A stretch of 64,000 nucleotides of DNA from Larinioides sclopetarius (GCA_964023285.1 CAXIEN010000093.1:2503739-2567738); one strand, 5' to 3'; shown: positions 3,452 through 47,902, numbered from the stretch's first letter. Notes: generated by a model from the letters alone, not told the origin. A program made the numbers and translations.

Positions 3452-3588
3452 ATTGGAAATTTAGGAACTTCAGAAGTTACGACTGTGGGAACCATCAATG
3501 CTCGAATAACAGCTATTATCCATAATGTAAGAATTATTGTTTGTGGTAGTTCTGAAGGTGATATTGGACTCTTTTCTTATCCTGAAAT
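3452..3588 (+). CDS. WD40-repeat protein gene, candidate exon (first one seen in this window)
   Basis: Acceptor 'tttatatttag' and donor 'gtatgtat'. Open frame IGNLGTSEVTTVGTINARITAIIHNVRIIVCGSSEGDIGLFSYPE. It ends with 2 extra nt (AT), which join the first G of the next exon to make an ATG codon. Confidence 0.45.
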
Positions 3589-5884
3589 GTATGTATATTT
3601 ACTTTCAATTTTCAATTAATGTTCTTTTTCAAATAAATTGTCAATATTTAAATTTAAAAAATATTTCATAAGATTTTTTTCAGGCAGTTTTATTGTGTTA
3701 CGAAGACTTTTGCTAAAGTTTAGATAACTACTTACTTACTTACTTAGATAACTACTACTTATACTTAGTAAAAGTAGGATTTGGGGATGGGAAAGTCTTG
3801 GCTTTGTTCAAGAGGTCACTAGTTTGAGATCAAATACAAACACAGAGCATTGAGCTAGTTCACTTTCAATCCATAGTATGTCAATTACCCTCAAGTTGTT
3901 TTGGGTAAAAATACAAGGAGAGGAGAGTGTTATTCTTTTGATCATGTCAATTTGGCTGACAACTGTAAACAAAATTTGGTACTTTGTGTGCATAGTACAA
4001 AGACCATTTACCAATTGCTTACCATTACTAAAAACCATTGCTTAATCTAGTTTGAATGGAATGCTTATTTTGTTTTGAAGAAAAATATTCAACTAATTTC
4101 ACTATTATAAGTTAAGTATTGCATAGTTAATTTTTGTATCGAAGCAAAAATAATATAAGTGGTAGGGTCACATGAAGCTGTGTGTGGGACTTTAGACAAT
4201 TCAAGCTTCAGGGTCTGCAAACCAAAAGCATCTCTGCTGAAGTCCATCCAGTCACTGACTTGTTCTTTTTTCCGAACTCTACACGTTTTACATTCTCTAC
4301 ACCAATTTTCAATGTCAATGCAAAATTAGTCCCCAATAAAATCACTACCGGGTTTTTCATAAAGTGTTCCTGACTTCAAAATGTCTTTAATTGATATTGT
4401 CATGAGTCAGGCGCAGAAATTTTTGAATTCCGCTCTTAGGGAGAATTAATTGCCATCGACAGGAGCTTCAATTTTTACTCTTTCACTCGCAATTTAGAGC
4501 TCTGTCCTTAAGATGTAAGGGTAATCAAAGAGTCCAATATCATATGATTACAGTATTGTCCTTAACGATTTTGTGCCAAGTTATATCCATTGAATTTAAT
4601 TTCTTCAGAATCGGTTTAATACTTGGATTTCCTAGTTGCACTTTTTGGATCTCGCTTCAAAACCAGCTTTCCTCATTTGACATTTTGAATGCTTTCATGG
4701 AAATATCTGTTTCGATTCCGAGTGTCTTCTCAGCATTGAAGCAAGATTCGTTGCTCTCAATACAGAGTCGTTAAGCTAGGGTATCTGCATTTCCTTGAGG
4801 TTTCTTCGGGGTGCTGTAAATTAACTGAAACCAAAGAAATATACTCTCCTCCTGTTCATATCTTGTTCTTCTCCAAATCTATAGTAAATTTGCGTTTTTG
4901 TAGAAATCCTTTCCGAACATGAATTGGTGATATTAATTGTATAGACTCGGTGTTGGAATTTTCTGGATATGCATTCAATTTCCCATGTATCTTTGCCTTT
5001 CCTCTTGGTTCTTATTTTGCATCTCTGCTGGTATTACAAATTTTAATGTTAAGTGGAAACAACTCAATAATCAAATTTCTTCCCTTGATTCTAAGCTTCT
5101 GGCATAATAAAGAAAAATCGATTTTTTTTCTCCTTTTAAAATGGGTTTTGCAAATAATAAACTTTTGGAAATGGTAGGGAAATGTTAGATTTTTCTGATG
5201 AGTGTTATTTATGTATTAAATATTTCAAAATTAGAGGGTTTATATTTTGTTTTTTTGCCATAAATAAGCTGAAAATGTTTCTATAATGTATGGAGAAAAG
5301 TTAAAGCATGTCGAATACATGATAGAATTTTTTTAAAAAATGTCATTCAAATGAGTATTTACTTGTATACAAATTGCAATAATTATTGTAGTAGAAAATA
5401 ACCTATAAATTGCAAAATATATGTACATCTACTTAAATATTTTGAGAGGAGAATTTATTAATGATAGTGTTCAGAAAGCGTAATCGATCTAGGGGCTCCA
5501 TTACTCAGTAGTATAAGAGAACACAAAGTTTTTCAAAAATCTCTTTTGATTATATCAAAGCAACATTTTAAGCTACTTATAATTATTCAATGTTATTCAT
5601 TTAAGCAGCATTACTTTTTAATGGTTACATAAAATTTAGTTGATTTTCATAGAAAGTAGATTTTATTGAGACTTAAATTTATCTTCTTTGTGAAGAAATT
5701 TAAATACCATACTAGATTTAAGTATTTAATATATTCCATATTATCCATGTCTTTATTTAAGGAGCATTGTAACAATCTTTATTTTTTAGAGTAATGAGCT
5801 AAAAACTAAGTATTGATACAGAAAGAAATTCTGTCATTTATGTATTTTAACTTTTTTCTCTTTTACCTTTTCGATTTTTTAAAG

Positions 5885-5987
5885 GAATTCTAAAGTTGTT
5901 ACTGGAGCACATGGAGGGTCAGTTACAGCTCTGAATTTATTTGTTAGAGATGAAAGTGTGTGGGTTATAACAGCTGGTAGTGACAAA
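5885..5987 (+). CDS. WD40-repeat protein gene exon
   Basis: Acceptor 'ttttttaaag' and donor 'gtatga'. Encodes NSKVVTGAHGGSVTALNLFVRDESVWVITAGSDK, and the reading continues in phase into the next exon (…SDK|VIKLWE…). Confidence 0.7.
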
Positions 5988-6068
5988 GTATGAATTTTAT
6001 TCATATTTAAATAGTTAATTCTTATTGTCCTTTCTAAGGTATTCATGCATATTTAATATACTTTCTAG

Positions 6069-6173
6069 GTAATCAAATTGTGGGAGATTGATTATGAAGA
6101 ACTTGTTATGAAAGAAGAATTCTTCTCGAAGCACTATGATTATGTCACTTATTGTTCTTCATATCCTGATTGT
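6069..6173 (+). CDS. WD40-repeat protein gene exon
   Basis: Acceptor 'ctttctag' and donor 'gtatgt'. Encodes VIKLWEIDYEELVMKEEFFSKHYDYVTYCSSYPDC. The 'SDKVIKLWE' run across the junction is a classic WD-repeat signature. Confidence 0.7.
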
Positions 6174-6265
6174 GTATGTTATCAATTTTTTAATCAGAAG
6201 TTCTTTAAATCATTCCTAATGTTTATTTTACTATTTCTTATTAATTATGTGTTTCAAATTTTAAG

Positions 6266-6379
6266 TTTAACAGGTACCTTACCGGATCTCATGACAATAA
6301 TGTCATCTCACAAAATGAATTTGGTGAAAAAACTGTGTATGAAGGCCTTAAGACGAGCGTAATAAATATAGCATTCACA
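6266..6379 (+). CDS. WD40-repeat protein gene exon
   Basis: Acceptor 'aattttaag' and donor 'gtaagt'. Encodes FNRYLTGSHDNNVISQNEFGEKTVYEGLKTSVINIAFT. The 92-nt intron breaks the read-through ORF, as a real intron should. The acceptor choice (6265 versus 6273) was decided by phase. Confidence 0.6.
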
Positions 6380-7059
6380 GTAAGTTTCTTCACTTTTTAT
6401 AAGTTTTGCCTCGAATTTATTTTTCATATTTCTTAAAAATCTTCATGTTCTATAAATAATTGTGAAGGTAACATATTTCTTTCATTTAATGTTAGTCACA
6501 TAGATCTGATTTGCTGTCTTATTTTCTAGATCATAAAATATTCTTTACTACTTTTTTCGTATTAAATAAAAGTAGCAGCATATAATTGATTTATCCAAAA
6601 ACTTGTATTTATAAGATTCGTATAATCTTCTACATTGCTGTCTAAAATTAATGCACAATTTTGAGGATATTACACAATTGGATTAATGTGGATATTGTGG
6701 TTTGTACTTAGTTGCTGAGAACAGTAGGACTTACTATCATTAAACTCACTTTTTATAATGAAGTTTTGCTCACAAGGTCAGCCACCAGAAAAAAGTGAAA
6801 GCAAAAATGAAGTTTGATCCATTCCTTTTTGTCTGATAGCTGGTAATGAGATGTAACTTTTCTTAATGGTTATGTTTGATGTGCATGATATTTATATGCA
6901 TTTTCCTAAACACAATAAATATTGTGGAAGATATAAAAATTTTCTTAAAAATCCCAAATTTTCTACATTAAAAAATAGCTTAAAATATGCAGTTTCATTC
7001 AAATTGCATGAAACTTACAGAACACTTAAATATATATATATATGTTTTGTTCCAGCATA

Positions 7060-7846
7060 ACTTCCGAATGACTGAACTAATTTTGATGGAACTTGGTACA
7101 TGGGTTCCTCATAACCCACTTGAAGTACAGGGTTTGTGAATAAGGTCTTATAGAATGCCTCAGGGGAGGGGTGGATCAAAATCTCCAAGATCCATGTAAC
7201 AAACTGAATGTTTCGTAAATTTTACGGTTGTGCTGAAATTTGGTGCACAGGTTCCTCATTACACGATTTGAAGTGTTGGGGGTTTGAATAAGTTTTTATG
7301 AGTGAGTGACCCTAAATTTCAGAAATACATGCAATAATTTTTTCTATTTCTAAACGTAGCAATTTTTGTGAAACTTGGTACATGGGACCCTCATTATTTC
7401 TGATTTAAAGTACTGTAGGTTTAAATAAGCCCATGCCCTAAGGACGGGTGGGCCAAAATCCCCCAAATAAATCTAAGAAAAAGGCAGGTTGGCATGTTTC
7501 GCGATTTTGATGAAATTTGGCACACAGAATCCTCATTAGCTGACATGTATGAATAAATAGGCCTTAACAAAATCCCACCAGGGCAGGATTTGTCCACCCC
7601 CCAAACTAGTTACAAGTAAAAAAATAGGCCGGTTGGCTTGCTTTGGGATTTTAAGGATATTTGGTACATAAACTCTTCATTAGCTGACTTGTATAAGAAA
7701 ATAGGGCTTAAATCCTTTAGGGCAGGGTTGATCTAACCTCCAAATATACATGTAAAAAGTAGACCAGTTGACATTCTTCGATTTTAAGGAAATTCAATAC
7801 ACAGAATATTTATTAGTCGATTTGTTTGGTTAAACAGACCTTAATA
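7060..7846. repeat. Tandem satellite array with a unit of about 140-145 bp (left part)
   Basis: Five to six consecutive diverged units of the form 'aaatttggtacacagaatcctcattagctgac…aaataggccttaacaaaatccc…gggtgg…ggttggcatgtttcgcgattttgatg'. Confidence 0.8.
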
Positions 7847-9148
7847 CAAGGGTTGGAACTTTAATAATGTCAACTATTTATTTACATCTAATACAAAAGT
7901 GATACATGTCAGCAAGTCTTACAGTCCTTCAATATAGTTGCCAGCAATGTGTACAACCCGTTTCCAATGATGTGGAAGTCGTAGGACACCTATAGCAGTG
8001 CCTGTTCTGTTGATAATTTAAATGGAGCAGTCTACTGCTGCAAAAGTCACTGGAACCATTCTGAAGCGAATGCCATGAAGTGGTTCTTTCATCTTAGAAA
8101 TTAAGGCAAAGTCACAAGGGCTTAGATATGGGGAGTTTGGTGGATATACAGCATTTCCCAGCCCCATCGATCAAGTAAATCAGCCACAGCTTGTACTGCA
8201 TGTGGCTGAGCATTGTAATGCCAAATGATAAGAGCCTTCTGTAGAAGGTGTCGCCGATTTTTTCTCAAAGCTGGTCTGAGATGGTGTTCCAAAAATGAGC
8301 AGTAATACTGCACATTGATGGTCTGCTGTGGGGGAACGGTATGCGTTTGGATGACACCATCCCAGTCATACATGAGAATCACCATAACTTTCACATTGCT
8401 GGGGTTTTGACAAAGTTTCGAACTTCCTGGTGACCCGTAATGATGCCCTTCTTCAATTGGCGTTTCAGTTCAGCCTGGTACAAATCTCGCCCAGAGTAAT
8501 GTTTCAGCATAAGAAAGCCTCTCCTTCGCTCTCATAGCCCTGCAAGTGGGTTCGAGCAGCATTGTATTGTTGCCATTTCTGTCAAATTATGCGGAACCCA
8601 TCTTGAAGCAATTTTTCTAATGCCCAGGCTTCTTCAGAATGTGGAGCACACAGTCGAATGTGCAAATCCTGCCTGTCAGGACAGCTCACGAATCGTTTGG
8701 CGACGATCACTGCCCATTAGTGCGGCAACAGCATTCACTCCCGCTCTGCTAATACTAAGATGACCTGGCCAATGCATATCTGCTACATTTTGGCTTCCTT
8801 CGTTAAAGGCCTTTACCCATCTTACCACTGTTCTGTAAGGTAATGCAGATTCCCCGCAAGCCTCTTGAAGACCTTGATGATACTGTCATGCTGTACGACC
8901 TGTGACACATTTAATCTTTACCCAACTCCATTATTCTTCTTTGGAAAACATTGTGACAACACTTACTTTAGACCACAGGCTATTACAAGGCTCAGTGCTT
9001 CGCTTCACTCTGCATGCTCATGACATAGGAGAAGGGCGAGTTTTTTTTTGCTGAGAGTTAAGGTAGTAACTAACGTGGGGTATATGTGACATTCTTTGGT
9101 TTTGAGGTGTGGTGTGCAGTGTTGCCACTATTAAAGTTCCAACCCTCA
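7847..9148 (-). mobile_element. mariner-like element of about 1.3 kb, with terminal inverted repeats and TA target-site duplication; the transposase is degenerate
   Basis: Termini are 'CAAGGGTTGGAACTTTAATA…' at 7847 and '…TATTAAAGTTCCAACCCTCA' at 9148, inverted relative to each other, with TA at 7845-7846 and 9149-9150. The minus-strand ORF 8122-8394 encodes 'LIIWHYNAQPHAVQAVADLLDRWGWEMLYIHQTPHI', which matches the mariner C-terminal 'ILHDNARPH…LGWEVL.HPPY'. The remaining frames are disrupted. Confidence 0.85.
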
Positions 9149-9400
9149 TAAAACCCCTCAAGGAAGGGTAGGCCTAACCCCTAAATTCAAGCAACAAAAA
9201 GGTCAGTTTGAATGTTTCGCGATTCTTAAGAAATTCAGTACACAGTATCCTCATTAGCCTCATTGTACAAGTAAATAGGCTTTAACAAAATCCATCAATT
9301 GAGGGTGGGTCTAACCTTTCAAATACATATGACAAATAGGCTGGTTGGCATACTTTGCGATTTTGATGAAATTCAGTATACAGAATCTTCATTTTATACA
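9149..9400. repeat. Continuation of the same roughly 145-bp satellite array, to the right of the mariner insertion
   Basis: The units 'aaattcagtacacagtatcctcattagcctcattgtacaagtaaataggctttaacaaaatcc…' resume immediately after the mariner terminus. Confidence 0.75.
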
Positions 9401-9496
9401 TGCAATATATAAACACATTTGCACAAATACCATCGATACCACAAGTAAAGTGAAGCAAAGGCATAATACGATTGATCTGAGACTCTATCCTGCTGG

Positions 9497-9880
9497 AAAG
9501 TTTTTGTTTAAACTTTGGTATGAATATTTCTTTATAGCCAATATCAAGTACTATACGGAGGATAAATAAAGTGTAAGGTGTCCTTCCGGGTAGGTTCAGG
9601 CAATGTCTTCTAAAAACAAATAAAATATGAATTGATTGAACTGAAGTCTAATTCCCAGTTTTCAGCATATAAAACTGAAAATGGAGGTGTTAAATCTCTT
9701 TTTATCAATTCCTTAGATGATAATTATCAATAGGATAAGGTGAAATGTTTATATAGAACAGCTGGGGCAATTTTGAAGAAACATATTCAATTAATTGATT
9801 TAGGCATGTTTATTGCCAAAATATTATTTTTTTAAATGATTCTAACTTCATTTAACAACAACAATAAGGAGGTAACAGCT
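9497..9880 (+). repeat. Dispersed repeat copy 1 (direct repeat, pairs with 15690-16055)
   Basis: 'ctttatagccaatat…attgattgaactgaagtctaattcc…ggataaggtgaaatgtttat…caacaacaacaataaggagg' aligns with the second copy at about 75% identity. Confidence 0.6.
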
Positions 9881-11079
9881 CTGTTGTCATCCTCTTATCA
9901 TAGTTGAAGATAGTGACATCCATCCCAATATAGTCATCGTTTTGCTTAAAAAAGACATGTAAATGTAACTGGATTATAATAATTGTGAAATTAAAAAGAA
10001 TTCTAAAATTAATAATTAGAAAGCTAAATAAAAGTAAGATTCTTGGTTTTTGCAATTTTTATTTAACTTAATTAAGTTATTGATTCGGAACGCATATTTT
10101 ACTACAAATTTCAGCTTTCTCATTTGATAAGATATTTTATAAAAGAGAGAACAATATGAATTTCACACAAATTGAAATAAATAAATTTTTTTCCAACCCT
10201 GCTTTCGAATACAATTTTACATGAAATGCTTTGAACTAAATGTCTACACTTTAGCCAAATTTTCATTTTTTTAAAATCAAATGTCTAAAACTAAGGAGAT
10301 TCAAATTATAATGTTTGCAACATTAGCACTGTCTTGAAGTTTGAAAATAGAAGATAAAATGAAAATAAATACCATTTTTTACTGCAAACGTCATTCAACT
10401 TTTTAAAATTTATTAATTTGAAATGCATAGCAATTTTAATTTCTATGTATGCTAAAAATAATTTGACAAACATAAATTCCAAATAATCGTTTCAACAATA
10501 AGTATTTTTAAATGAATACTTAAAAATAGATATAGCAAAATTTTAATTCGATTTTATTTAAAAATGTCTAAAATTTAGTTAGACTAGATCTTGTAATTTT
10601 GAGCCGTGGCAGGGGCGTATCCAAAATTTTTTGAATGGGGGTGTGGTATTAGTTATCAAGAAATTATTTATCTGAAAATTTATCACATTTTAAAAATGAG
10701 CTAATGTTTATACATTATAATAAAATTACAAAAATTACAGTTTTATTTTTCATTTTGTGATTTAATGGTTTTATTTAACATTTCGAAATTTACACAATAT
10801 ATGAACCGATTTCTTTTTGCTTCATTATAGACATTAAGAAAATTGTCCTTTAAACTATTCCATGATAAAATTATAAATATGAGCATTGTTTATAAATTTA
10901 ATTTATTCTTTTATTAGAAAATAATTAAAAAATAAATTTAATTAAGTTATTAAGATAGAAATTTTAGTTTTTAAAATGATTTTCTTTTAAAGTCTGAGTT
11001 AATCTTTTTGCAAAATTTCAATTAGTGTTTGAAATTTAGAAGCTATAAATGCAATTCATAAAAAATCTTCATAAAGGAA

Positions 11080-11235
11080 AAGCACTAGGCCTGACGGAAT
11101 TGACAATATTATTATTCAACAAATCAATAAACGATTTCCTATTCTGTTCATGGAACTTATTAACAAAGGTCTGTATCTTGGGGCATTCCCTGACCCTCGC
11201 AAGTTATTTAGTTCCAAATTGATTTGCCCCAACTG
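11080..11235 (+). mobile_element. Fragment of a non-LTR (LINE) retrotransposon reverse transcriptase
   Basis: Translation 'K(A)LGPDGIDNIIIQQINKRFPILFMELINKGLYLGAFPDPRKLFSSKL' resembles the RT N-terminal 'GPDGI…F…L…N' block. No ORF flanks it. Confidence 0.45.
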
Positions 11236-12589
11236 TATTACTAAAATAAATGTTGAAAGATGATGGTTTCATAAAGAGTTTTATTCGTTTTCTAACTGTT
11301 TAAACAATAAAATTTTTATTTCTTGAAATTGCCCAGTTTAAAGATATATGTAAAGATTTTTATTACAAATTTCAAAAACTGTTTTTTCATAATATCTGTA
11401 TCTGAGAAATGTAATACCCATGACATACTAAAATAGCTTTTCGCAGCATCTAAAGGATAAAATATATCCCAAAAGTACTGCAATTTGGAAGTCATTTTGA
11501 AATAGACAGATCAGTTTAAAGTATCCAAATAAGAAATAAAAACAAAACAAAAAAACCCCAAAAATCTATAGTGATGTTCTACATAAACTTTCCCTAATTT
11601 TCTCATTGAATTTATCTTGTTTGCCTTGGTAATTTAAATTTGAAATTGTTTTCTAGGCTTATTCTTCATACTCTTGAATAAATAAATAGTTGACAATTCG
11701 AATTCAGCATTATTTAAAAAAATTTCAAAAATTTTGTATTTTAATTAAATTTGTCATTGAATAATCTTGATAGAATTGAACTGAAGTTGCTTTGAGCAGG
11801 TAATAGAAGACAGCTTGCTTTATGCATACAGAAAAACAACATTATGAATTGTGGTGTATGGCATATGGCTGTAAGGGAAAATTATGTGTCCCTATCTTTA
11901 CATTATTAGAAATTTTAGAGCTAAAAGTATTCTAGAATACAGTTCTAAACAGATATTTAGAACTGTATTCTAGAGTACCTTTTGCTTCATAGTGTTGTAC
12001 TCAATGATTAGTATACAAAGATTTCAAACAGGAGTGTGATGCTCTCGGGCACACCTTTTCAATACTTGTCCGTAATTTGCGTGTTCTCTTGGGGAGAAAT
12101 TTATGCTTCATATAGTATTCAATTTCAGTTCTATATTTCTTGTTGGACTTTGAAATAAATAACCAGGAGTAAATGTTATGCAGAGCTTGCAATATGCTCC
12201 TTGCTTATATTAAATAAAAAACTACCAGTAGCCTGGAATATTCTTTTCCAAACGATGAAAACTGATTAACATCATGCACAACTGTATCTGTATCACGGAA
12301 TAGAGCAACATCTCTGTTTCTAAAAGAGCTTGTGGAATTTTTACTTCCCGGTACAATTAATGAAGGAATTTTCGAGAAGTTTTAGCTGTACTATCGACAA
12401 CTTCTTCAAGGAATACTAATTTAGATGACACTGCATGGAATCTCCTTTTCATTGTCTACTTCCACAGTATTGATTTTCAAAACAAATGCACTAAAACAGA
12501 TTAAAAAAATAATTCTAGATTCTGTGTATTTTTTGCATTTTTTCTCCAATAGTAGTTTCTTTTGCACTTGTTGATAATAGCTGACGGGA

Positions 12590-12866
12590 GTTTTCTCTTT
12601 TGTTAATATATGACAGAATACCAAGCAAAAAAGTTGGGAAATCACTAAAAAGTTGGATGCCGCCACTGAGGATCTCGGGGGGTGCTCGAGCACTGAGCCG
12701 AGGTCTGATGGGAAGGGCAGCACCTGAGCTGATACCCTTTCCAAGCTTCCACATTACAACAGCAAGAGGATATTTGACCACTGCCTTACATGGTGGAACT
12801 TCTCGAGTTTCGAGTCTAGAAAATCCCTGCCCTGAAAAAACCTTACCGCTAGGCCACTGCAGCCAT
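12590..12866 (-). mobile_element. tRNA-derived SINE copy
   Basis: The minus strand begins 'GGCTGCAGTGGCCTAGCGGTAAGG' (an A-box-like sequence) followed by 'GACTCGAAACTCGAG' (a B-box-like sequence). An A-rich tail lies toward about 12600. This explains the overlapping 100-140-aa ORFs on both strands at 12421-12937. Confidence 0.6.
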
Positions 12867-15689
12867 TTAGTCAGAATGGCTAAAAGAAAACTGAACACAT
12901 AATAATAGAGAAAGTAAATGGAAGCATTAATTGGCAATTAGAATTCAAACCGAGAATTACATAAAAAGAATTAATTTGAAGTTGGTGCAATAAAATATTT
13001 CACTTCACAAAACTTATCAAATAAAGCAAAAAACATTTCACTGAATAAGGCTTTATTTGAGGAACGTTGAATAAACACAAAATCTTTAAATTAAGTAAGC
13101 AAAATTCTGCTTTGACGTTTATGTATAACAGAAAAAAAAACTTTATCAACCTCAGCTTTAAAAATACACTGGTGTGCAAAAATCAAGCAACATTTCAGGT
13201 AAGCAAGAAACTTGCAATTAATATAAAAACTATGGTTTGAAATCGGATATAAAAATATCTATGACATTTATTAGACTATCAACTTGCAAAAATTCGGTCA
13301 CGAGAGCAATTGAGGGAACCACCAGACAGGATGAAAAAAAAAGGGAACTTGGACCATCCTATTGCAAAAAAAGCAGATAACAAGGTGAAACTTTCACAAA
13401 TGGCAAGGTTTTGATGTGTATAATATTTATATGTATTTTCGTACACATTCACAAATATTTGGGAAGATATAAATGTTTATTTAATCGATTCCAAAGTGAC
13501 CCGTATGTTTTTTGCTAATGACGTGCAAAGTTTTCAATCGGAATCTACACAACTTTCAGAATAATTAGCAAAGAAAGGTTGTGTTAAAATTTGAAGAAAA
13601 TTAGAGTAACATTATAGGAAATACGAGTACATGTATTAACAATTTATACAATGCATGTGTGCTAGTAGCGTAATGTTTTATTGCACAGATTTAAACTCTG
13701 ATTAAAAACTAGGGGCAGCTTATCTAAAAATTCCAATTCAGTAAGTATAAAATTCGGAAAGATATTGGCCTTTGAATCGGATGAACTTGACTTTCACGTT
13801 TAAAGAAGCTAAGTGATGAAAAATCTTGCCCAATTTTATATTTTTTAAATTTTTAATTTCGAAGAGTAACATTGAATTTTATGAAAAGTAAACATTTTGA
13901 ATAATGAAGACGAAAAAATGAAGGAAAGGGGCTGCACCAAAATCACATTTTACGGCAGAAAAAATTTGCGTATGATTTCCAAATTTGACAGGATTGTTAC
14001 AGAATGTTTATTCTACAATCTAATGAAAACCATTTTTGTTTAAAACTTATAGAAGGGTCAAAATAAATACCGAAAGAGAGGGGTAATTAATAATTGCAAA
14101 ATCACAATTAGTCTTTCGATAACTATTTAACTGCTTTGAAACTTTGTGGTGATCTGCAAAATGCCTTTATCTACCAAATAATGCATTATTTTATTTGCAT
14201 TGATACTTTATTCAAATTAAAAAAAGCGAATAAATGCATTTAAATCATTTAAGTACTCTTTTTGTTTGCCAGAGGGCACTGCACCTGATACAATTACAAG
14301 AAAATCGCGGATTTTATCGAAAGGTCGCGAAAGAAAATCGCGGAAGGTCTCGCGGATTTTAATTTGGCGGTTGGATTCTCTAGTAGATTTTTTTTCGCCA
14401 AGCTTTAATATGGAAACCCTGGTTTACCACATGGGGTTCAATAATACAATGGTAGTTATGTTTTTGTCTGTGTGCTTGATAGTAAAGTTGCGAAATACAT
14501 TGTGAAAATGGGCTCCTGTTTTAAGCTATGGGGGATTCCACACTTCAGCTCGATTTTTTGACATTTGCAATGATATTTGTTAGATAATTTACCGAAGTTC
14601 GATATCTAATTAATAACTAGTACACAGTTATTCAATTAACAACTATGGTTATTTTAGTTTTTTTTTCTGATGGGAATTTCAAATAAAACTGGTCTATTTT
14701 CACAAGGTTGCACACTCATATAATGCAATAATTCATGCCTAGGCTCTTTGCCACCCGGAACGGAATTGAAAAATGCCGCTTAAAAATAGCTCACACAAAT
14801 ATCAAAATGAAGACTAATTGAAGGAAATAGAAAGACATTTTACATTTGAAACAGCACAGAAAATTACACAAAAAAGTGTGTAATTTTTCTTGTTTTTGTA
14901 TTTGTAGAATCATTGATAGCATCTCCTTAAAATCTGTTTTACTAGTTAAGATACATTTAACAGATAATATTGCATGAGCCCTTAATCACTCAATAATATT
15001 CCAATTATTATTATTTAAAATCCTCCATATTCCATAATTTAAATAAATATTTATTTTCGTGCTTCTCTATATTCTTATTGTGAGAAAAACATATATTAAT
15101 GATTACTTTTATCTTTTAATTCCTGATTTTTGTTGTGTAGAAGATATTCTCAAGATAATTTATAAACCAGTAAATAATCCAGTAAACTGAAAGATTATTA
15201 TTGTGGTGTTTTAATTTTGTTTATCAACTTATTTTAAGCTGACTAACATGCTTATGGGTATAAAATGTGTCATGAAAATGTAGCATTGAAATCTATTGCG
15301 TATTTATGTTAATCCAACCTAGTAGCAAATAAAAACTTCAAGGACACGAAAATGATCGCGAGTGAAACGTCGATAGCAATTTGCAGTTTAACCCTTTAAC
15401 ATACAATGACGTCTCTAACACGTGCATCGAATTACAGAATTTTCCTATCTAAATGTGTATTTAAGTCATCACAGTGATTAATTTTAAATACAAAAATCAC
15501 ATGGACATGCTTTATTGTCTCAAGTGGTCTTTACCATCTGAAATAGATTGAGATAATAAAATACATTCGAAATCGGCGGTGGCTTCTAATTAAGATGTTA
15601 AATATATTTGTATTTCAAAGGATTAAAACTACTTTTTAAGGGGGTGACATAAATTCAATCATTTATGAATGATTCAGTTTAAATTTTAT

Positions 15690-16055
15690 TTCTGATTCCT
15701 TTATAACCAATATTAAGTACAATGAGGAGAGGGGATGGAATAAATAAACTATAAGGAATCCTTCAAAATAAGTACGGGCAATGCCCCTTAAAACAAATAT
15801 AATACGAATTGATTGAAATGAAGCCTAATATACGCAAGTTTCAGCATGTCGAACTGAAGAAAGGAAAAGTTAAATCTGTTTTTATGAGTTCTTTAGAGAA
15901 TAACTATCGATAGGACAAGGTGAAATGTTTATTGGAACACCTGGAACAATTTTGCCAAAACTTGTTCCATTAACTAAATTAGACATGCTAAATACCAAAA
16001 TATTATTTTTTAATTACTCTTACTTTGTTCAACAACAACAAAAAGGATAGACATG
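15690..16055 (+). repeat. Dispersed repeat copy 2 (direct repeat of 9497-9880)
   Basis: 'ctttataaccaatat…attgattgaaatgaagcctaata…ggacaaggtgaaatgtttat…caacaacaacaaaaaggatag'. Confidence 0.6.
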
Positions 16056-16619
16056 GTCCCTTAAAATAGTTTTCTGGGAAGTCAGTCTTGGAAATATATA
16101 TTAAAGTACAATTTAGCATGAAATTCTTATAATTATGTTCCTAAACAAAATGAAATTTTCCTAAAATAAAGTGTTCCCCCAAACTGATGAATAATGCAAG
16201 GAATATTTGTAATATTGCTGACTGTGATATATATTTTAAAGGAATGCTATTTTTATACTATTGAGTTATGGGTGTTCATAAAAATACTGATTTTGTGCTA
16301 AAAAAGATTAATTAATACTTTATTTAGTAATAATTCACAGATAAACCAGTCTTACAAGCACTTTTGACTTTAAAAAGACCATGCAAGGCCGCGTATTCTA
16401 CTAGTATATATAAAAAAGAAAGGGAAATTGACAGGAGATGATTCAAAGAAATAATAAAGCATCTTTTATTATCATTATATTATACATTAATTATTATTTA
16501 AGTATCTTTTATGGCTTTATCTTTCTCAATGTTAAAGTGATTTTGCTTTATAAAATATGTTTTTACTTTATTTTTAACGATTACAAATACATATTAAACA
16601 CATCTTTTATTATGCATCA

Positions 16620-16840
16620 TCACTTCCCTTTATGTCTTTTTTAAAGTGTTGTTCGATTTTCATGTGATAGATCGAATGTTTCAAAAGAATCATGTTTGCT
16701 TTATCATTTTTAAAATGAGTTCTGCTTTTTTTAAAACAATTTTTAAAAAGTTTATTAAGCTATATTTAGGTCCCATTTTTGAAATTTAACGGAATCTATT
16801 TTCGGGCGAAAGCTTCTCATTTTGCACCATGGTCTTGAGC
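16620..16840 (+). repeat. Local roughly 200-bp repeat, copy 1
   Basis: '…ttttcatgtgatagatcgaatgtttcaaaagaatcatgtttgctttatcatttttaaaatgagttct…gtttattaagctatatttaggtcccatttttgaaatt'. Confidence 0.65.
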
Positions 16841-17274
16841 CACACTTTCTCCAGCATTTCTCCCGACTACAGCCTTTACCCCCTGTGCAAGGGTAATACT
16901 GCAGTGGAATGACATTTTATTTTTTCCATAGAAATAGAGCAACATAGAGGAAAATTACCGAAAATATTGATTTCATCCTTATAATGCTCATAATTATGAT
17001 TTATAAACAAAAGAAATTATAACAAATATGAAATTAATAAATAATTAAAGTGTGTTCTTAAAAATTGTTGTTATTAAGTTTATGGAGCTATTTTCCAACC
17101 ACATATATCTAATTATTAGATACTCCATCCTCGCATTGAATTTTTTAGATCGCCTTTGGGTTGCAGTCCACATCACCTCAATAAATAAAGTGATCCCGCA
17201 CTGTAAATTCTGTTGTCAATCTTCAACTTAGCCGATTGTCTTCGAGGGTGGTCATATTATTACATTTTTCAATG

Positions 17275-17470
17275 TGTATCACCACTTTCTTTCATATCTT
17301 TTCAAAACATTCTTCAATTTTCATGTAATAAAATTGAATGTTTTAGAAGAACCATGTTTGCGCTATCAGTTTTGAAATAAGTTCTTTTTTAAAAGTTTGT
17401 TAAGCTATATTTAGGTTCCGTTTTTGAAGTTACACAAGAGCTAATTTTGGGAGAAATTTTTACATTTTGA
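17275..17470 (+). repeat. Local roughly 200-bp repeat, copy 2 (direct, about 650 bp downstream of copy 1)
   Basis: '…ttttcatgtaataaaattgaatgttttagaagaaccatgtttgcgctatcagttttgaaataagttct…gtttgttaagctatatttaggttccgtttttgaagtt'. Confidence 0.65.
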
Positions 17471-20400
17471 GCCATATTCAGATGATGAAGATGGCAGCAT
17501 TCCTTTCCTTTAGGACATCAAAAGAAGAATCAGTGGGTAATATAATTATGAAATCTGAAGCCTTAAAAATCAAATACATTATTTTAATTGCATTTTCTTG
17601 AATAATATTCGAAAATTCAAGTTTTGAAATATCAGTTTGTGGAAGAACCCTTATCACTTAGCTTCTCTAAAAGTGGAAATGAAATTCTTCCGATTCAAAG
17701 AACGACAGCTTTCTGAATTTTGAATTTACTGAACTAGAGAAAAATTTTGCTATAAATTATTAAAAAATGTTGTTTAAAAAGATTGTTAAAAGCAAGGGGA
17801 TAATAGTGGGCAATTAACATTTAGGAAGCGGGAATCGCCAAAATACGGTTTGTTTTCAAAGTAACCCAAAATGAGGTTTTTTATTCAAAAATTTGATTTC
17901 TGTATTTATGAGTGAGGTTAAACCGGATACACTAATTAAAGCGCTATTTATTCTCTTTTCCAGAGGACAGATTTAAAATTCTGGTCATAGAGGCTGCATT
18001 GTTACCATTGAATTCACAGTGATAGTGAAAATGTGTTATAAGATGTTAACTGTCTCATGTTCATTTGTATTTCACGATCCTCACTTAGTAACCGTTATAG
18101 TTATAAATACTGTATTTCTTCTACCATATTTTATATTTCCTAAGGATTTGTAACCTATCAAAATAGAAAGATTAAGTCCTATTATTGCATAATTTTATTT
18201 TGTCTCTTGTAATTTCTTCTTGCGGTAAAACCGGATACTCCAAATGCCACAAAATCTTATCAGCCAGTAATAATAGTATCTTTCTCTGAAAGCGATACAA
18301 TTACATAAGAAGTTGATTGTTTATATTTTAATGATGTATTTTCTAATTTTATAATAAAATGGGTGTTTCAAGATTCTTATATTGATCTACGAAAACGGAA
18401 GTGGCGCGGATAAGGAAAACAACTGCCTTAATGTCAATTTATTTTTACTAATAATCTTAAATTATAACATAAAATGAAAATGCATGTAACTTTTTCGATG
18501 AAATTAGAATGAGCGAATTCAATTAATTCAAACTGCAACGTGTACGGTGCAAGGTCAAATTTTTAATTAATTATTTTTTATTAGTGTGACATATGCCCTG
18601 TAGTCCTCAAGCACAGCTCCAGGACTCTAAAATATCCCGTTTTTAAAAATAGAGCAACCCAAAATGACAATTTTAAACAAAGAACTAAAGTAAAAGAACC
18701 CTACGATATTCTATATTAACCCTGTGACGACAGAACATGCATACTTATCACACATATAATTAATCAGAAGCTTTCTATCGCATTTCTAACTTAAAATAAT
18801 CATTTATTTTCTCCTCAAAACAGGACATGTACTAAGTGTTTAGTAATGAAATAAGTGATCTTTTGTTTGTCCCTTTCAAAACGAGACATCCATAAATTTG
18901 AAAGTAATAGTAAGTATCTTGGGGAAAACGCATATTTCTTCACATTATTTATTAATGAAAATGATCAGAAAGGTACAGAAGAAGTTACATAATTTATGTG
19001 GTCTTGTATTTATCAGAAAAACACACTTCTTTATGTATATCTGCCGAAATTAGGTATCCGAGAAGTATTTGTGATAAAAAAAATGTCAGCAAGAAACGCT
19101 AAAATAGTGAATGACAAGAATTGGGAATAATTTTCATAAAGATAAAAGCTCGTAACGGGAAATTATAATCAATGAAATGGTTTGATATAAAATGGTATTT
19201 TATATGTAATAATGAATTATAAATAGGGTAGATATTTTAGATTAAGTTTATTCATACATTAGTTTTTATCATGACAAACAACAAAGAGAACAATCGTCAA
19301 AATTTTTTATTTTTCGCAACTTTTTACTTTTTTTCTGAAAACGAGACATTTAGCGATCCCGAAACTAGTTAAAACAGCACAGGCTCCCTTAAAATGGGAT
19401 AGACCCATTCAATATAGTCGCTCTATTCTAACTACATCACACGGCTTGCAATGACAGAATGCAACATTAAGAATATCTTAATCTAAAGTCGTTGAGTGCT
19501 ACTGTTCAAACATATATTCTATGCCTGCCCGGAAGAGGATCGTTTTTATGAATACATTGTGATCGAAATTAAGATCCCTGTTACAAGTCACAATTTATAA
19601 AACAAGTAAACTTTAAGAAATCCTGCCAAGAATTTCATTTTTCAATAAATTCTACACCTAATTAATTACAGAAACAGAAGTGTTTTCTTGAATCCTTACA
19701 ATATTTTATATAAAACTCTTACAAAGGCCAATTTAAAGATACAAAATAAATGGCCACTTTACGTATATTCGAATAAATTATATTGCGTACAAAATGCATT
19801 GGGACTGCGATGAAACAACGTGGAAATTATAAATACTGGTTTACCGTACTTTGTTTGTCGGCATCCTTCTGCATTCGTAAGAACAAAACTTCTTCTTTGC
19901 AAATCCATTTATAAATATGTGTGAAATTTTTTTCACTTAAAAATTGTGGTTTTTATAATAGAATATTTTACATATTGCAATCTGGTATGATTCGTTTTCA
20001 TAAAAGATAGCAATATCCTAGTGATAAATACTATGAAATTAAGAATCTAATAAATTTTTCAATTTTTTTCTTTTTTTGCTATTAATTTTAAAATGTTCGA
20101 ACTTATTTTGTTTTCTTGAATATGCAACCTGATTGCTAAGCAGAGTGGGCCACTGAAATTGAAGAGTGTTATCTGGCTATATTTAATTATAATTAAAATT
20201 GTTTGATACACTGTACAAGTAAATATCCATGTTTGGCTTTAAAAAAATTCTGTTTAATAAAAGTGCCTTCTGAATTAGTTCTAGCATGAATTCTGTCTTT
20301 CATGCTTTAATTCCTGCTGAGTTCAACAACACTAAGAATTATTCCTTTGTCACTAAGTTGCTGATAACAGGTTGAAAGTGTAGCTATTCGCGCTATCGTA

Positions 20401-21381
20401 TGGATTGAGATGCATTCTTAATGTGAATAACTAATTCTTACAGACTGAACAGTCTTAGAGACAAAACAAAATCTTCACATTGGGGTTCAAAATGTATACA
20501 AAACTATCAAGTCAAAACTTTTCGACACTCTTTCCCCCTTCATCCCTGTATCATGGCGATGACTGACAGATTTTAAGCCCATTCGCCTCGAAATCATGGA
20601 TAGACATCTGTATCTTTTGAAAACATTTCCTCACACCCTTAAAAATTCTAAACAAACTGTTCGATTTCATGATCTGTTCGGCAAGTGTATACCCACCTTA
20701 ATATGTTTGTATGCGACTGTTTTTAAAACGTCACCCAATTGACAGTTTATTCCTACTTTTCCTACAAAATAGCCTAAGTAGACAATTTATTTTAAAAATT
20801 TAGCTCAAATATTCATACTACATAAATTTATATTCATAGAGGATACTAAAAATAACTTCAAATATGATATAAGTGTAATTTTTGAAGTTTTTAATACCCA
20901 TTTTGGCTTGTAATAAAAAAAATCTACCTGCATACTTTTTTTCTCTCAACTTTTTAAAGCCAGATATGTAAAGCAACTTATATAAAAATCCCGCTTCAAT
21001 ACCATATATATTCAAAGAAAGAGATATCAGTATTGCAATTTTGTGACTTTCTGTGCACTCTCTGAAAAGCTTAATAATGAAGGTTTTTTCATGAACTAAT
21101 ATTTTTTAAATTTAAAATTTTGAATAAAAATCGTCAAACTGTAATTTAAACTATGCATTTAATTTAAGTACATGAGTATTCCGGATATTCAACTTTCACA
21201 AGAATCGATATTACTATTGAAGAATCTAGATGAAAAAATATCAGTTTATGCAAGTGTCACCATCATTTTGCTTCTTTTAGACCATACCAAAAAGTTAACC
21301 AAGTTGCAATGATGATATATTTCTGAATTAATAATAATGGAATTGAATTACTATCTTTATATAAGTTGCCCCATACACCAA

Positions 21382-21397
21382 AGAGAGAGAGAGAGAG
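21382..21397. repeat. (AG)n microsatellite
   Basis: agagagagagagagag. Confidence 0.9.
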
Positions 21398-22337
21398 TTT
21401 AAAGTTATAAATAAACTTACACCACATTTTGGACATGTGTAGTATAAAAATATTTGTTACAAATGCTTATATTTCGTAGAATATTCAATTTTTACATTGA
21501 AATTTTAATAAAGTGCTTCTTTTATATATTAAGTTTTTTGTTATACTCAAAGACAAGTCAAGAAGATAATAGAGATTACGCTAGACTTCCGGCGAAGCTC
21601 CGAACTCGTGTTTCTACGCGTCTCTCTCCTTACGCCTTAATCTTAACGCTTCAAGGTCGTTTGGACCTCACTTCCGCTCAAATTCGGACACAAGGCTGGA
21701 AAAATATTGTTGAAGTTCAAGAGCAAACATTTTGAAAATAGATTTTTATTGTAGAGAATATCGATTATTGTTATTTCTAGAAAAATTCTGTTCAAATATG
21801 TCAATTATTTTCAAAATAGATTAGGATAATTGGGGAACTATTTCACTCGGCGGAAGAATACCATTTCTAGCTTCTACTGTATAACAAACTTAACTTGTCT
21901 TGGACTATAGTTTTGTATAATTTAGTTTAAAACATTGTCAAAGACATGCAACAAAAATTATGAAATCTTTAAGGAAACCTTTATATTTTCTCAAATATTT
22001 GTGCTGTGTTTACAGAAACACAAATATATATCAATACAATAAAAATAAATCAAACATAGCCATTGATAAAATTTATGCCTTGTTATAAGCTTTCATTATA
22101 ATGGGATAATTAAAACTTTATTTTCATCTTCATACCTTTCTGATGATCTCTTTATTACCCTTGTGACTGAATCTTCAATGTAAAATGTGAGTTCTGATGG
22201 TATTATGTCCTATGATTTTGATCAACTGATTGTAAACATAATATCCATATTTAATGCTAATTTTGTACATCTTCATAATTGTGCTTTCTTTTTGGACTAC
22301 ATTGTAGCAACCTATATTGTTGTTTTTTACTACTTAG

Positions 22338-29152: not shown

Positions 29153-29437
29153 AGAGCATTTTCATATTCCTTGGAAGGTCATAATAAAGGCATTACTTCT
29201 TGTTGTACTAGTCAAAATGGTGAAATTTTATCATGTTCTTTGGATGGTACTGTTAATTTATGGAAAATACCTGATGAAACAGAAGAATTTCATCCCGAAC
29301 ATTTAGCTAGCATAACTGATATTTGTTTATCTGTTACACAAAATAAAGTTGTCAGCTCAGATGCATATGGTAATGTTATTATTTGGAAATTGATCCTGTC
29401 GGCAGGTTCTCCTTTGATGTATGCAGGAAAGAAAACC
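29153..29437 (+). CDS. WD40-repeat protein gene exon (two WD repeats)
   Basis: Acceptor 'ttttttctatag' and donor 'gtgagt'. Encodes RAFSYSLEGHNKGITSCCTSQNGEILSCSLDGTVNLWKIPDETEEFHPEHLASITDICLSVTQNKVVSSDAYGNVIIWKL…KKT. This matches provided ORF 29171-29497. Confidence 0.8.
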
Positions 29438-38005: not shown

Positions 38006-38160
38006 TATACTGGAGGATTTGTCAAAGCTCTGTCATTGCTGCAGGACAGGAAACTTGTTTGTGCAGTCACACAGACAACAGATGGTGACGATAAGCATTT
38101 TATCGATGTTTTATATTATGATTGCTCTGCATCTGATAAGAATTCTATCTACAACTTCCA
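38006..38160 (+). CDS. WD40-repeat protein gene exon
   Basis: Acceptor 'gttaatgtttcag' and donor 'gtatgaac'. Encodes YTGGFVKALSLLQDRKLVCAVTQTTDGDDKHFIDVLYYDCSASDKNSIYNFQ, in the frame of ORF 37991-38191. It is in phase with exon 29153-29437. Confidence 0.65.
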
Positions 38161-39565: not shown

Positions 39566-39700
39566 GGTGAAGAATTCACACTATTTAGACAGTGAAGTAC
39601 TGTGTCTTGATGCAAGCTTGAAAACTGAAACAGTTGTGGCTGGTTTGAAGTCGGGAAATTTTGTCATTATCACCTCAGATAGGAAGAAGACATTTAATAT
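39566..39700 (+). CDS. WD40-repeat protein gene exon
   Basis: Acceptor 'ccttttcttgcag' and donor 'gtatgc'. The CA carried from the previous exon plus G gives CAG, then VKNSHYLDSEVLCLDASLKTETVVAGLKSGNFVIITSDRKKTFN, in the frame of ORF 39567-39773. Confidence 0.7.
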
Positions 39701-40139: not shown

Positions 40140-40266
40140 ATCTGATGACTGGGTTTTAGGTGTTAAGCTTTTATCAAATTCTGTTGACTCTGCAGAATTT
40201 ATATTTACATCATTGTTAAATGGTACAGTTAAACGTATCCAAACGGAAGAAGCCTTGAACAATGTT
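40140..40266 (+). CDS. WD40-repeat protein gene exon
   Basis: Acceptor 'ttcttcttttag' and donor 'gtaagt'. AT plus A gives ATA, then SDDWVLGVKLLSNSVDSAEFIFTSLLNGTVKRIQTEEALNNV. Confidence 0.7.
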
Positions 40267-41781: not shown

Positions 41782-41940
41782 GATACTATTAGAGCTTCAA
41801 TGGAAGAAATTCGGAGCCCGTATCTGGGAAATGTTCCTGTTTTTATAAGTGCTTTCTTTTGTGCAAGTTTTGACAATGTTTATTGTGGTGATTCACAAGG
41901 TTGGTTAAGAAGATATTCAAATACTCCAATATCAAAAAAG
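41782..41940 (+). CDS. WD40-repeat protein gene exon
   Basis: Acceptor 'ttttttttgttgttaaag' and donor 'gtatgt'. Encodes DTIRASMEEIRSPYLGNVPVFISAFFCASFDNVYCGDSQGWLRRYSNTPISKK, matching ORF 41770-41982. Confidence 0.75.
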
Positions 41941-44540: not shown

Positions 44541-44642
44541 ATTCATGACGATTCAATTACTGGCATTGCAGTTTGTGGTAGATATGTATTCACATGTTCT
44601 TTAGATAAAACTCTGAAAGGTTGGAATTCTGCTCTTAATCAG
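44541..44642 (+). CDS. WD40-repeat protein gene exon
   Basis: Acceptor 'ttttttttttaattttgtag' and donor 'gtatta'. Encodes IHDDSITGIAVCGRYVFTCSLDKTLKGWNSALNQ, with the 'SLDKTLKGWN' WD signature. Confidence 0.75.
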
Positions 44643-47600
44643 GTATTATATGTATATATATTTTCCATTGATTTGATAGGATGCTTATAACTTTACTCTA
44701 TTAATTTCAAAGAGTGTTTTTTTATATTTCTAAAGTTTTCAATTTTCAGTTGCATCAGTTAGAACCATTCACTTCAAACCCTTCCTTTGAATAGACCCTA
44801 TAATTCTTCTGAAACCTTTATCATGTTATGGCACCAACTAAGTTTCTTTACAGATGGTTGAACCTGTATGTAGACTGGAAATCAAAATAATTTCTTCATT
44901 TTCAGCATTTGAATAATAAAGCATCCTTAATTTACTTTAAAACTATTAGTAATAAGTTCTAGTGTGATAGCTCTCAAATACTTGATAAGCAGTTATCAGT
45001 TAAAAAGTGAGAGTATGCTATTAAATAAATTTTGAACGTATTTATTAAGTAATGAAATACAACCGTTTGTTCTTAATCAGCTTTTTCTTTTTAATTGAAA
45101 ATACTACTTCCTAGCTTAACAAGCTCAAAACGTTTTCCACTTTTGTAGTTGTTGCATTCATACTTGTTATGTTGGCTTAGACAATAACATTTTTGGGAGC
45201 TAGTTATTACATTGTGTTTTTTTAATTAAATTATCAAAAGTATTATAATTTAGTTTGATTCTCTTATTGTCAGGTGAGCAAATTCTCTGAATGTAAAAGT
45301 ATTTAAGTTTTCATATGCCATGAGGTTTGATATTCAACACGATGTTGCAAAAAATTTTTATGTCCTACTCAGACCAAAATCCTGGATTCGCCTTCTTCAT
45401 ACCAGAATAAAGATTGTACATTGATGCTAATATACTTTTAGAGGTCTACTCTAATTTGCTTAACTTCAATGATTGTATTATATAAAAGTTTTTTCCACTT
45501 AGATTCTTAAAAACTGTATTCTTAAAAATTATCATTGGAAATATATAGCCTAGTTTTTAACAAAGCAACTTTGAATTATTTTGGTGCTACTGATGATTTC
45601 TTTTATAATTTCTTTGAAATCAGGAATTTGGGTTTATAAGAAACTTTTATTTTTTTTTAAATTTTGCAACCAGATAAAATTTCCATTGAATATCAAATGA
45701 GCGATTCACTACATGGTTATCAATACTTTTAATCAGTTTATAATCTTTGTGCATCCTTTTTATTACTATTCACATCTATTTATATTATATACATATTTTA
45801 ATGACACAATTTCTTGATACAATTAATAGAACCAAATTTTAACATTGTATAATTTCTATTAGATTCATTCAGCACTAAAATTTTTTTGAAAAGTTCAAAA
45901 AGTAGGCCATATTGAAAGTAGTGATTACAAAATGGATCATATCGAAAATTGATATATAAAGTCTTAAAGTGGTTTACTGTATTTTTTAGCTTTTTTTTTA
46001 ACTTATAGTACTGAAACTGTTAATACTTGATTTATTATTGACGATTTGTCAGTTTAAAAAAGCTGATTTTATAACATGCTTATTTTATTTACTTTGTCAG
46101 GCTTTTAAGGATATTTAGCTCCAAGGTTTTTTTATAAATATTTTTGCTGTTATGTTAATCTGTTTTGTGCTTTTGAGTCCCAAAAGCTAAATTTTGCAGT
46201 TAATTATTTCTAATCTAAGAAGCAATAGCTAGTTATTTTGGGTAATTTAAAATGCAAGGTGATCATAAATTTTTGGACAGATTTGAAAAATCAACAAAAT
46301 GAAACCTTATAATTTAGCAACTACATTTTTTAAATGAGAGTAGCTTAAAAAAAATTTTTCAGGTTATGAACATGTCATTATGGTGCATTAAGTTTGGGCA
46401 ATCTGTCACAAGTTTCAAAATGGTTACCAATCAGCCAGGGCCTGCTTCAGGGATGTGCAGCCCATGCCATGGCATAGGGTACAGAGCATGTAGGGGTTCC
46501 AATTCCGAATTATGAATTTGAAAATTCGTTTGAGTTATTTGGATGCCGATCGGAATGCAATAGAAAGGAAAACCAGGGGAAAGCTAACCAGTTATAATTG
46601 TTGTTAGGAGAATTTACAGGTAGAATTAAGTCTTCTTACATATGTAACAATATATAAAATGTACTAGGGAGGCATCACAATAATTTTACTCAGGGCACCA
46701 AATATCTAGGGCCACTCTTGAGGGAGCAAAAGGCATGCCTCTGATTCCAAGAAAGCAAATTAACATTTCTAGGAATTACTCAGAGTATCAAAATTGGTGG
46801 TCTCCAAGCAAGAACTCCATTAAATGTTGTTGTGAGCAATTAAGAGTGAAATCCTTTGAACTGTTGCAGCTGATTTGCTTTCATAAAACCAGACATGCCT
46901 TCTGTTGCATGTTAGTTTTTTTGACATTTATTTTGGATGGTACAGATTAAGTGTGCCGTAATGCAAAAACGTATGACAGCTTATAAAAAAAAAACTTCCT
47001 GGGCTGCTCACTAATTCTACAATGTAAACTGAGTTGCAATATTGTTAGTTTTTTTTAAAATTAATTTTTGAAATGTGTTCCATAATTTATTACCACTTGG
47101 ATATAAAGTAATATTTAATTTTTTATAAAGAAAGTGCAAATTATTTATTTTACTGTATTTTAAATTGAAACCTTCAATAAAAACTTGCGTGTAATACTGT
47201 GAAGTGGAATTTTTAATCTACATCAGGTTGATACTCAAATTTATTTTGAGGGGAGACCTTTTAATGTTTTTTATTAGTGAATTTTGTCATTTAAAATAAC
47301 TTTTTTTCTGATTTCTTCTAAGTTAATATGGCTGTTAGAAACTAGTTTTTTGGAAAGATGGTTTATTTGTGAAATGTGCTATTATTGCGATGACCTCAGT
47401 TTAAAACAACTATATAAATCTGATGTTAGGTATTCGTTGAGCTGTTTTGTTGCATCATATTTATCGTTCAAGTTTTTTCAGCCATTATTTTAAAATTTAC
47501 ATTAAAGATTTTTACATTAAAGATTTTTGAAAATGTTTGCAGTTTTACTGACATGTTTTCTTTCAGATTCTTATTTTCGCAAGAATTTTATTTTTTTTTA

Positions 47601-47752
47601 ATTTTATTTTTTTCGCAAGATTTTTTAGAATTTTATGAAATTTCAATGCAGTCCTTTAAAGAGTAATAACCATTCTTCAGTATGGAATAAGATATTAGAA
47701 ATTGAATATATAAATAACTATTATATGAACTTAACTATATTGTTTTTTGTAG

Positions 47753-47902
47753 GTGTGCCTGTTCCATTCATCTGTTCCAATTACTAGTCTTGTTGGATGT
47801 GAATTTGCTCTTACATCATCCATTCCTACTTACATTTTAGTGATTGGTACTTCTTCTGGAGCTATTCAATTGTTGAAATTTCATGATAAACAGAAAAATT
47901 AA
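47753..47902 (+). CDS. WD40-repeat protein gene terminal exon, ending at stop codon TAA 47900-47902
   Basis: Acceptor 'tgttttttgtag'. Encodes VCLFHSSVPITSLVGCEFALTSSIPTYILVIGTSSGAIQLLKFHDKQKN*. The phase is consistent with all upstream exons. Confidence 0.75.
   Translation: MCLFHSSVPITSLVGCEFALTSSIPTYILVIGTSSGAIQLLKFHDKQKN

Follow-up and report, generated by a model that had tools for sequence, protein, structure and literature searches.

WD40 propellers bind partners, and in Apaf-1 cytochrome c binds between two of them. Among animal proteins with C-terminal propellers, TEP1, NWD1 and NWD2 are defined by a TeTIR-NACHT region followed by WD40 repeats, and TEP1 adds TROVE-VWA (bioRxiv 10.64898/2026.09.21.753143). 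Here we compare with these systems a locus of Larinioides sclopetarius, contained in a window of 64 kb (CAXIEN010000093.1:2503739-2567738; "the window" is used below for the whole stretch of DNA analysed, which is 29% GC and has no N). Positions 3452-47902 of the plus strand are probably the intact 3' part of a gene that codes for protein in an AT-rich animal genome; its last thirteen exons lie here and encode C-terminal WD40 blades. From the sequence, we give this reading a probability of roughly 0.75.

The gene model was rebuilt independently from the raw sequence. Stop-free stretches of the plus strand were listed, WD-like peptides were chosen, all frame-compatible AG…GT junctions were enumerated, and the sites with the best consensus were joined into a single chain; a few coordinates given by an initial annotation of the window were used solely as hints. 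The outcome was a set of thirteen exons spanning 44.5 kb, identical to the phase-consistent model with AG/GT junctions proposed by the initial annotation. The joined exons total 1779 nt, that is, 592 codons plus a TAA. All introns are of the GT...AG type (12/12), and the phase closes at each junction without exception. Introns 1-12 measure 2296, 81, 92, 15958, 5694, 914, 8568, 1405, 439, 1515, 2600 and 3110 nt. The elements of the model are as follows:

Exon 1, 3452..3588, plus strand: 137 nt, enters in phase 0; blade 1 (…IIVCGSSEGDIGLFSY); acceptor tttatatttag, donor gtatgt; weak WD40-profile match, E 0.098; GC 0.343 against 0.258 in the flanks.
Exon 2, 5885..5987, plus strand: 103 nt; first part of blade 2 (AHGGSVTALNLF…VITAGSDK); WD40-profile E 4.4e-5.
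Exon 3, 6069..6173, plus strand: 105 nt; VIKLWE, then the beginning of blade 3; WD40-profile E 1.4e-5.
Exon 4, 6266..6379, plus strand: 114 nt; blade 3 (YLTGSHDNNVISQ) and strand A of blade 4; donor aca/gtaagt; WD40-profile E 2.4e-7.
Intron 4, 6380..22337, plus strand: 15,958 nt; short dispersed repeats, and the remains of a mariner on the minus strand (about 8018-8830).
Exon 5, 22338..22467, plus strand: 130 nt, leaves in phase 1; blade 4 (ILGCGSDGSVAMWSE); acceptor ttttttactacttag; WD40-profile E 7.6e-9.
Exon 6, 28162..28238, plus strand: 77 nt; blade 5 (TLAFVDRDGSVKIRK); donor cag/gtaggt; WD40-profile E 1e-3.
Exon 7, 29153..29437, plus strand: 285 nt, the longest; blades 6 and 7 (LEGHNKG…SLDGTVNLWK…AYGNVIIWK); WD40-profile E 1.1e-29.
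Exon 8, 38006..38160, plus strand: 155 nt; diverged blade 8 (LVCAVTQTTDGDDKHFIDVLYY); acceptor aatgtttcag, donor gtatga; codon log-likelihood ratio (LLR) +0.15 bits/codon, above 99.9% of the null; GC 0.381 against 0.28.
Exon 9, 39566..39700, plus strand: 135 nt; diverged blade 9 (VVAGLKSGNFVIITS); acceptor ccttttcttgcag; codon LLR +0.16.
Exon 10, 40140..40266, plus strand: 127 nt; diverged blade 10 (IFTSLLNGTVKRIQT); acceptor tttttcttcttttag, donor gtaagt; codon LLR +0.26.
Exon 11, 41782..41940, plus strand: 159 nt; diverged blade 11 (VYCGDSQGWLRRYSN); codon LLR +0.20; the hhalign alignment spans the region (P 1e-5).
Exon 12, 44541..44642, plus strand: 102 nt; blade 12 (VFTCSLDKTLKGWNS); WD40-profile E 1e-3.
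Exon 13, 47753..47902, plus strand: 150 nt; blade 13 (ILVIGTSSGAIQLLKF), then HDKQKN and the TAA at 47900-47902; acceptor attgttttttgtag; codon LLR +0.03, above 97.5% of the null.

Several of these junctions leave little choice. Exon 2 is the sole in-phase AG…GT open exon that places SDK ahead of VIKLWE, and the donor of exon 3 (tgt/gtatgt) is the best one within the open frame. The acceptor at 6265/6266, which the initial annotation had marked for checking, held: no other acceptor is in phase with that donor (GTATGT at 6174), and a rival acceptor at 6273 needs poor donors. Of all donors, that of exon 5 (gtacca) is the weakest; at the junction with exon 6, G and AT make up an Asp codon. Use of an alternative acceptor of exon 11, at 41752, would lengthen the protein by 10 aa. 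The peptides quoted in the initial annotation are all present, LEGHNKG and SLDGTVNLWK in exon 7, SDK/VIKLWE across exons 2 and 3, and LDKTLKGWN in exon 12. An extra exon at 30124-30197 (74 nt), suggested there as an alternative inclusion, was rejected, as its inclusion shifts the frame and leads to an early stop. Beyond the stop codon, an AATAAA is found at 48046; it is uninformative as a poly(A) signal because the 64 kb contain 160 copies. Scans of the window with Rfam and for tRNA genes gave no match.

The joined protein reads as a series of propeller blades. Pfam WD40 (PF00400) matches it in 3 stretches with 68.9 bits (E 3e-19; cut-off 27), and many beta-propeller families of Pfam match it with E values from 1e-13 to 1e-23; exon 7 by itself reaches 50.8 bits with Pfam WD40. 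Among solved structures (PDB), all matches are WD40 propellers, and the best natural one is Apaf-1, with 49.8 bits. When we searched the protein for tandemly repeated units, each some 40-45 aa long and made of a strand A followed by [ILV][ILV]x[SGC][GS]xDGx[ILV]xxW, such units were found: there are 13 blade motifs, 36-58 aa apart and about one per exon, of which units 8-11 and 13 are degenerate. Introns frequently fall between strand A of a blade and its strands B-C. The 16-kb intron does so too, as it cuts blade 4, with strand A in exon 4 and strands B-C in exon 5. Direct joining of exons 4 and 5 is required for a complete blade 4, with a spacing of 38 aa, and the long intron of the initial annotation is thus borne out.

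The protein falls into two halves. Exons 1-7 (aa 1-317) encode canonical WD40 repeats, the first seven blades, while exons 8-13 (aa 318-592) are predicted to encode a strongly diverged propeller of six blades that runs to the stop codon. Homology coverage drops sharply beyond aa 317. A WD40 profile, for which bacterial proteins were aligned to aa 1-317, matched blade 12 alone in the C-terminal half; exon 12, with 21.4 bits for Pfam WD40 and 19.7 bits for TEP1_C, is the only recognizable WD repeat of this half. Comparison of aa 318-592 with the WD40 profile by hhalign gave alignments of as many as 246 columns, with P values between 1e-5 and 3e-4, and several propeller families of Pfam match the C-terminal half at E values from 1e-4 to 1e-7.

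The same WD40 profile was run against 2917 open stretches of both strands of the window. Only eight matched at E<0.1, precisely those carrying exons 1-7 and 12, with E values from 1e-29 to 0.1; no other stretch fell below an E of about 10. There is no further WD-like open frame in the window, so none of the introns, the one at 6380-22337 among them, conceals a canonical WD exon. Base composition points in the same direction: GC content is above that of the 300-nt flanks in 13/13 exons (0.31-0.39 vs 0.21-0.30). Codon usage was scored with a table trained on exons 1-7 alone. Exons 8-13 score from +0.03 to +0.29 bits/codon, against -0.26 +/- 0.15 for the null made of 748 non-exon open frames; exons 8-12 outscore at least 99.9% of that null, and exon 13 outscores 97.5%. 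No alternative or better coding-like frame exists on the plus strand between the C-terminal exons. Exons 8-13 are therefore supported by four independent lines: codon usage, GC contrast, one blade motif each at normal spacing, and hhalign. The view that the fragment is the WD40 C-terminal part of a larger protein is one on which matches to hidden Markov models (HMMs), codon usage, GC contrast and blade periodicity agree.

At its upstream end, the fragment begins in the middle of a blade, directly behind an acceptor. Positions 1-3451 hold no credible exon, not even a credible start exon, and contain transposon remnants only, including a piggyBac-type transposase remnant at 1530-2870, plus strand (Pfam DDE_Tnp_1_7), that is broken across three frames in the intron upstream of exon 1. 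The start inside a blade and the lack of a credible exon in 1-3451 indicate that the gene continues upstream of the window, as initially proposed. The presence of short coding-like islands amid transposon remnants marks the locus as eukaryotic and intron-rich. Lists of open reading frames (ORFs) of bacterial style were uninformative for a window of this kind.

To which family the protein belongs is a separate matter, and here our conclusions are tentative. No ortholog was found among 5.8 billion proteins (word-indexed search; the library includes eukaryotic proteins, spider proteomes among them) or among 1.84 billion. With the full 592 aa, the word-indexed search retrieved generic WD40 proteins only, of at most 64 bits and 21-28% identity, the best match in the 5.8 billion being a generic WD40 protein with 64 bits and 21% identity; with a rough 489-aa join, it gave no match. 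Neither a protein named TEP1 or NWD nor an ortholog of a conserved housekeeping WD protein was retrieved from that library. An exhaustive HMMER search with exon 7 yielded 45,836 library proteins at E<=1e-3, all generic, and none of the best 150 was colinear with the C-terminal half in the manner of an ortholog. In a metagenome scan with the 592-aa query, one contig matched (JACKQG010013200.1, 3001-4770), with 27% identity over aa 27-345; it carries a generic WD40 array and is not an ortholog.

Models of TEP1 propellers (Pfam PF25047 / PF25048) gave matches that require caution. Over the whole protein, Beta-prop_TEP1_C scores 50.9 bits for a cut-off of 32, a sum inflated by the repeats. TEP1_2nd scores 58.6 bits, below its cut-off of 89, and matches exon 7. 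In a control with bacterial TIR/NB-ARC/nSTAND WD40 proteins (P0101, P0141, P0020, P0112 and P0022), 5/5 passed the TEP1 models. Because bacterial STAND WD40 arrays pass them, the models are unspecific at the whole-protein level, and we rejected a TEP1 assignment from Pfam as proof. The terminal 90 aa, that is, blades 12 and 13, have TEP1_C as their top family (30.6 bits, profile positions 1-71 of 73), and exon 13 contributes about 11 bits to the match of blade 12. For canonical exon 7 alone, TEP1_C is not among the families listed. We take the terminal match, which is below the cut-off, as a hint. EML (HELP + TAPE) was another candidate that we discarded: Beta-prop_EML scores 54.3 vs 88.2 bits and EML_2 52.4 vs 90 bits, and the positions are not colinear.

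Our leading guess, offered at slightly less than even odds, places the protein among the STAND NTPases, as one of the TEP1/NWD or Apaf-1 type. The guess is based on a C-terminus that immediately follows a run of at least 13 blades, on the best library matches, which are STAND-WD40 proteins, and on the terminal TEP1_C match. The blades probably fold into tandem beta-propellers that would serve as the binding or sensing platform of the protein, and the domains that define its function would be encoded upstream, beyond the window. In a STAND protein, the C-terminal propellers may hold the NACHT/NB-ARC module (NTPase) inactive until a ligand binds. A narrower version, which we consider unlikely, is that of a lineage-restricted arachnid STAND protein of the TEP1/NWD type (TeTIR-NACHT-WD40), with the fragment as its sensor end and the last propeller diverged past WD40 models. 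Under such a scenario, the six blades missed by the models and the lack of a detectable ortholog among 5.8 billion proteins would be in keeping with a rapidly evolving receptor of the immune type, and not with the conserved vault/telomerase TEP1.

Certain observations weigh against the STAND assignment. The terminal TEP1_C match stays under the cut-off (30.6 vs 32), and the bacterial control proteins score far higher, with 160-179 bits for TEP1_C and 250-460 bits for TEP1_2nd. No sequence for NACHT, NB-ARC, TeTIR, TROVE or CARD is found within the window. The match to Apaf-1 is local; relative to the C-terminus, its register is shifted by about three blades.

These observations leave room for a protein with the same gene model that is not a STAND NTPase, namely, a double-propeller WD40 protein that stands by itself, or else the tail end of another large WD40 scaffold of the cilia, ribosome-biogenesis or trafficking type, whose propellers would be only an assembly platform. 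We view this as a serious contender, if appreciably short of an even chance. All family-level matches are generic WD40, the TEP1 models are unspecific, no STAND domain lies within the window, and propeller models of EML, WDR3, WDHD1 and WDR36 score as high as the TEP1 models. However, conserved scaffold WD proteins have recognizable animal orthologs, and none appeared among the 5.8 billion proteins; the EML matches neither reach the cut-off nor run colinearly; and a start exon has no credible candidate in 1-3451. To our knowledge, animal protein types whose chain stops directly behind 13 or more blades are few, which we also count against a protein outside the STAND class. As the initial annotation had anticipated, the fragment is not assignable to a named family: the front half of the protein lies outside the window, no ortholog was retrieved from the libraries searched, and the TEP1 propeller models are unspecific.

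Doubt of another kind concerns the gene model itself. Besides the failure to find an ortholog, three properties of the data count against it: splice sites and an open frame are by themselves weak evidence, as strict criteria give 45 candidates on the plus strand vs 35 on the minus strand; exons 8-11 and 13 have no direct match to the WD40 HMM; and the training set of the codon test amounts to just 317 codons. One might thus propose that only exons 1-7 and 12 are real, and that exons 8-11 and 13 are chance AG...GT frames, the true transcript using other exons or ending elsewhere. The high background of splice sites combined with ORFs and the absence of direct HMM support would suit such a proposal, as would the fact that the model was selected for fitting phases. 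Yet each of exons 8-11 and 13 passes the codon-usage test and shows the GC contrast, there is one blade motif per exon at normal spacing, hhalign spans the whole half, no alternative coding-like frame of the plus strand lies between these exons, and 30124-30197 breaks the frame. Hence, we deem chance exons improbable. Still less credible is an unprocessed pseudogene, a copy that is decaying or not expressed and keeps its frame by luck: the missing ortholog, the heavy divergence of the C-terminal half and introns rich in transposon remnants would agree with it, but the frame stays open for 592 codons and suffers no frameshift, although stops make up about 8% of random codons in this genome, 24/24 splice sites are intact, and codon usage is of the coding type in every exon.

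The repeats of the locus were also examined. Several statements of the initial annotation concerned the content of intron 4. The mariner element is there: Pfam Transposase_1 matches at 8125-8469 of the minus strand, within a remnant at 8018-8830 (minus strand) that is 72% identical to a Mos1-type transposase of Stegodyphus mimosarum. The supposed satellite was not detected by Tandem Repeats Finder; there is only a degenerate repeat of about 140 bp, present in five copies with 66-81% identity (7187-7681 and 9182-9393) that are split by the inserted mariner. The supposed CpG island is merely the mariner body, the only CpG-rich patch of the intron (GC 0.475, CpG observed/expected 0.63). The suggestion that extra exons might be hidden there gained no support, as no WD-like or coding-like open frame exists inside 6380-22337. 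The copies of long and short interspersed nuclear elements (LINE and SINE) also claimed for this intron stay putative; the ORFs tested contained no reverse-transcriptase domain.

Two patches near the ends of intron 7, at 29701-30200 and 37401-37900, are CpG-rich (GC 0.46-0.49, CpG observed/expected 1.2-1.5 vs 0.58 for the window). Each is unique in the window, has no Rfam or Pfam match, and is more island-like than anything in intron 4. On the minus strand at 4092-4325, a CxxC…K open frame resembles the zinc-binding motif of retroelement integrases, with a match to Pfam Integrase_H2C2 that is not significant (E 0.13). Downstream of the gene there are two short tandem arrays at 61826-61968 (50 bp x 2.9 copies, 91% identity) and 62402-62526 (42 bp x 2.9 copies, 84% identity). 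A dispersed repeat at 63294-63503, plus strand, has related copies at 24335-24424 and 62994-63078; its translation (…TPELAPLSPN…HTRRIFGGIRF) matches only hypothetical proteins of Trichonephila clavipes, with 56% identity and E values from 7e-4 to 4e-2. By themselves, this match and that of the mariner point to a spider or a different arachnid as the likely source of the window.

In sum, the locus is the tail of an ordinary animal WD40 gene, a known kind of gene, and its significance beyond annotation is small. A careful exon model made by eye can be right across a 16-kb intron in a repeat-rich genome of 29% GC, and it provides junctions that can be tested. A second lesson is that the TEP1 propeller models of Pfam are passed by ordinary WD40 arrays and are unfit, on their own, for calling TEP1. 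Should the upstream exons encode TeTIR-NACHT, the newly described animal family of TIR-like NADase STAND proteins would gain an arachnid member.

How, then, does the locus compare with known systems? With TEP1, NWD1 and NWD2 it shares a long C-terminal WD40 array, the last two blades of which best match TEP1_C at the C-terminus (30.6 bits); it differs in that TeTIR, NACHT and, for TEP1, TROVE-VWA are not in the window, and in that the terminal match is below the cut-off. Apaf-1 and Dark (CARD-NB-ARC-WD40; PDB 3SFZ, 3SHF) also have tandem propellers that reach the C-terminus, and Apaf-1 is the best match among natural structures, with aa 129-265 aligned to residues 648-783 of 1249-1256. Their propellers, however, comprise 15 blades (7 + 8), compared with 13 seen in the window, and no match colinear with the 7+8-blade region through the C-terminus was obtained. 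The highest library scores are those of bacterial TIR-NB-ARC-WD40 and nSTAND1-WD40 proteins (P0101, P0020 and others). In BLASTP, aa 29-588 are colinear with the C-terminal WD40 array of P0101, a TIR-NB-ARC-WD40 protein (residues 724-1232 of 1235). The bacterial proteins differ by an identity of 21-27% and by their prokaryotic genes without introns, and what they share with the fragment is similarity at the level of the repeats, not orthology.

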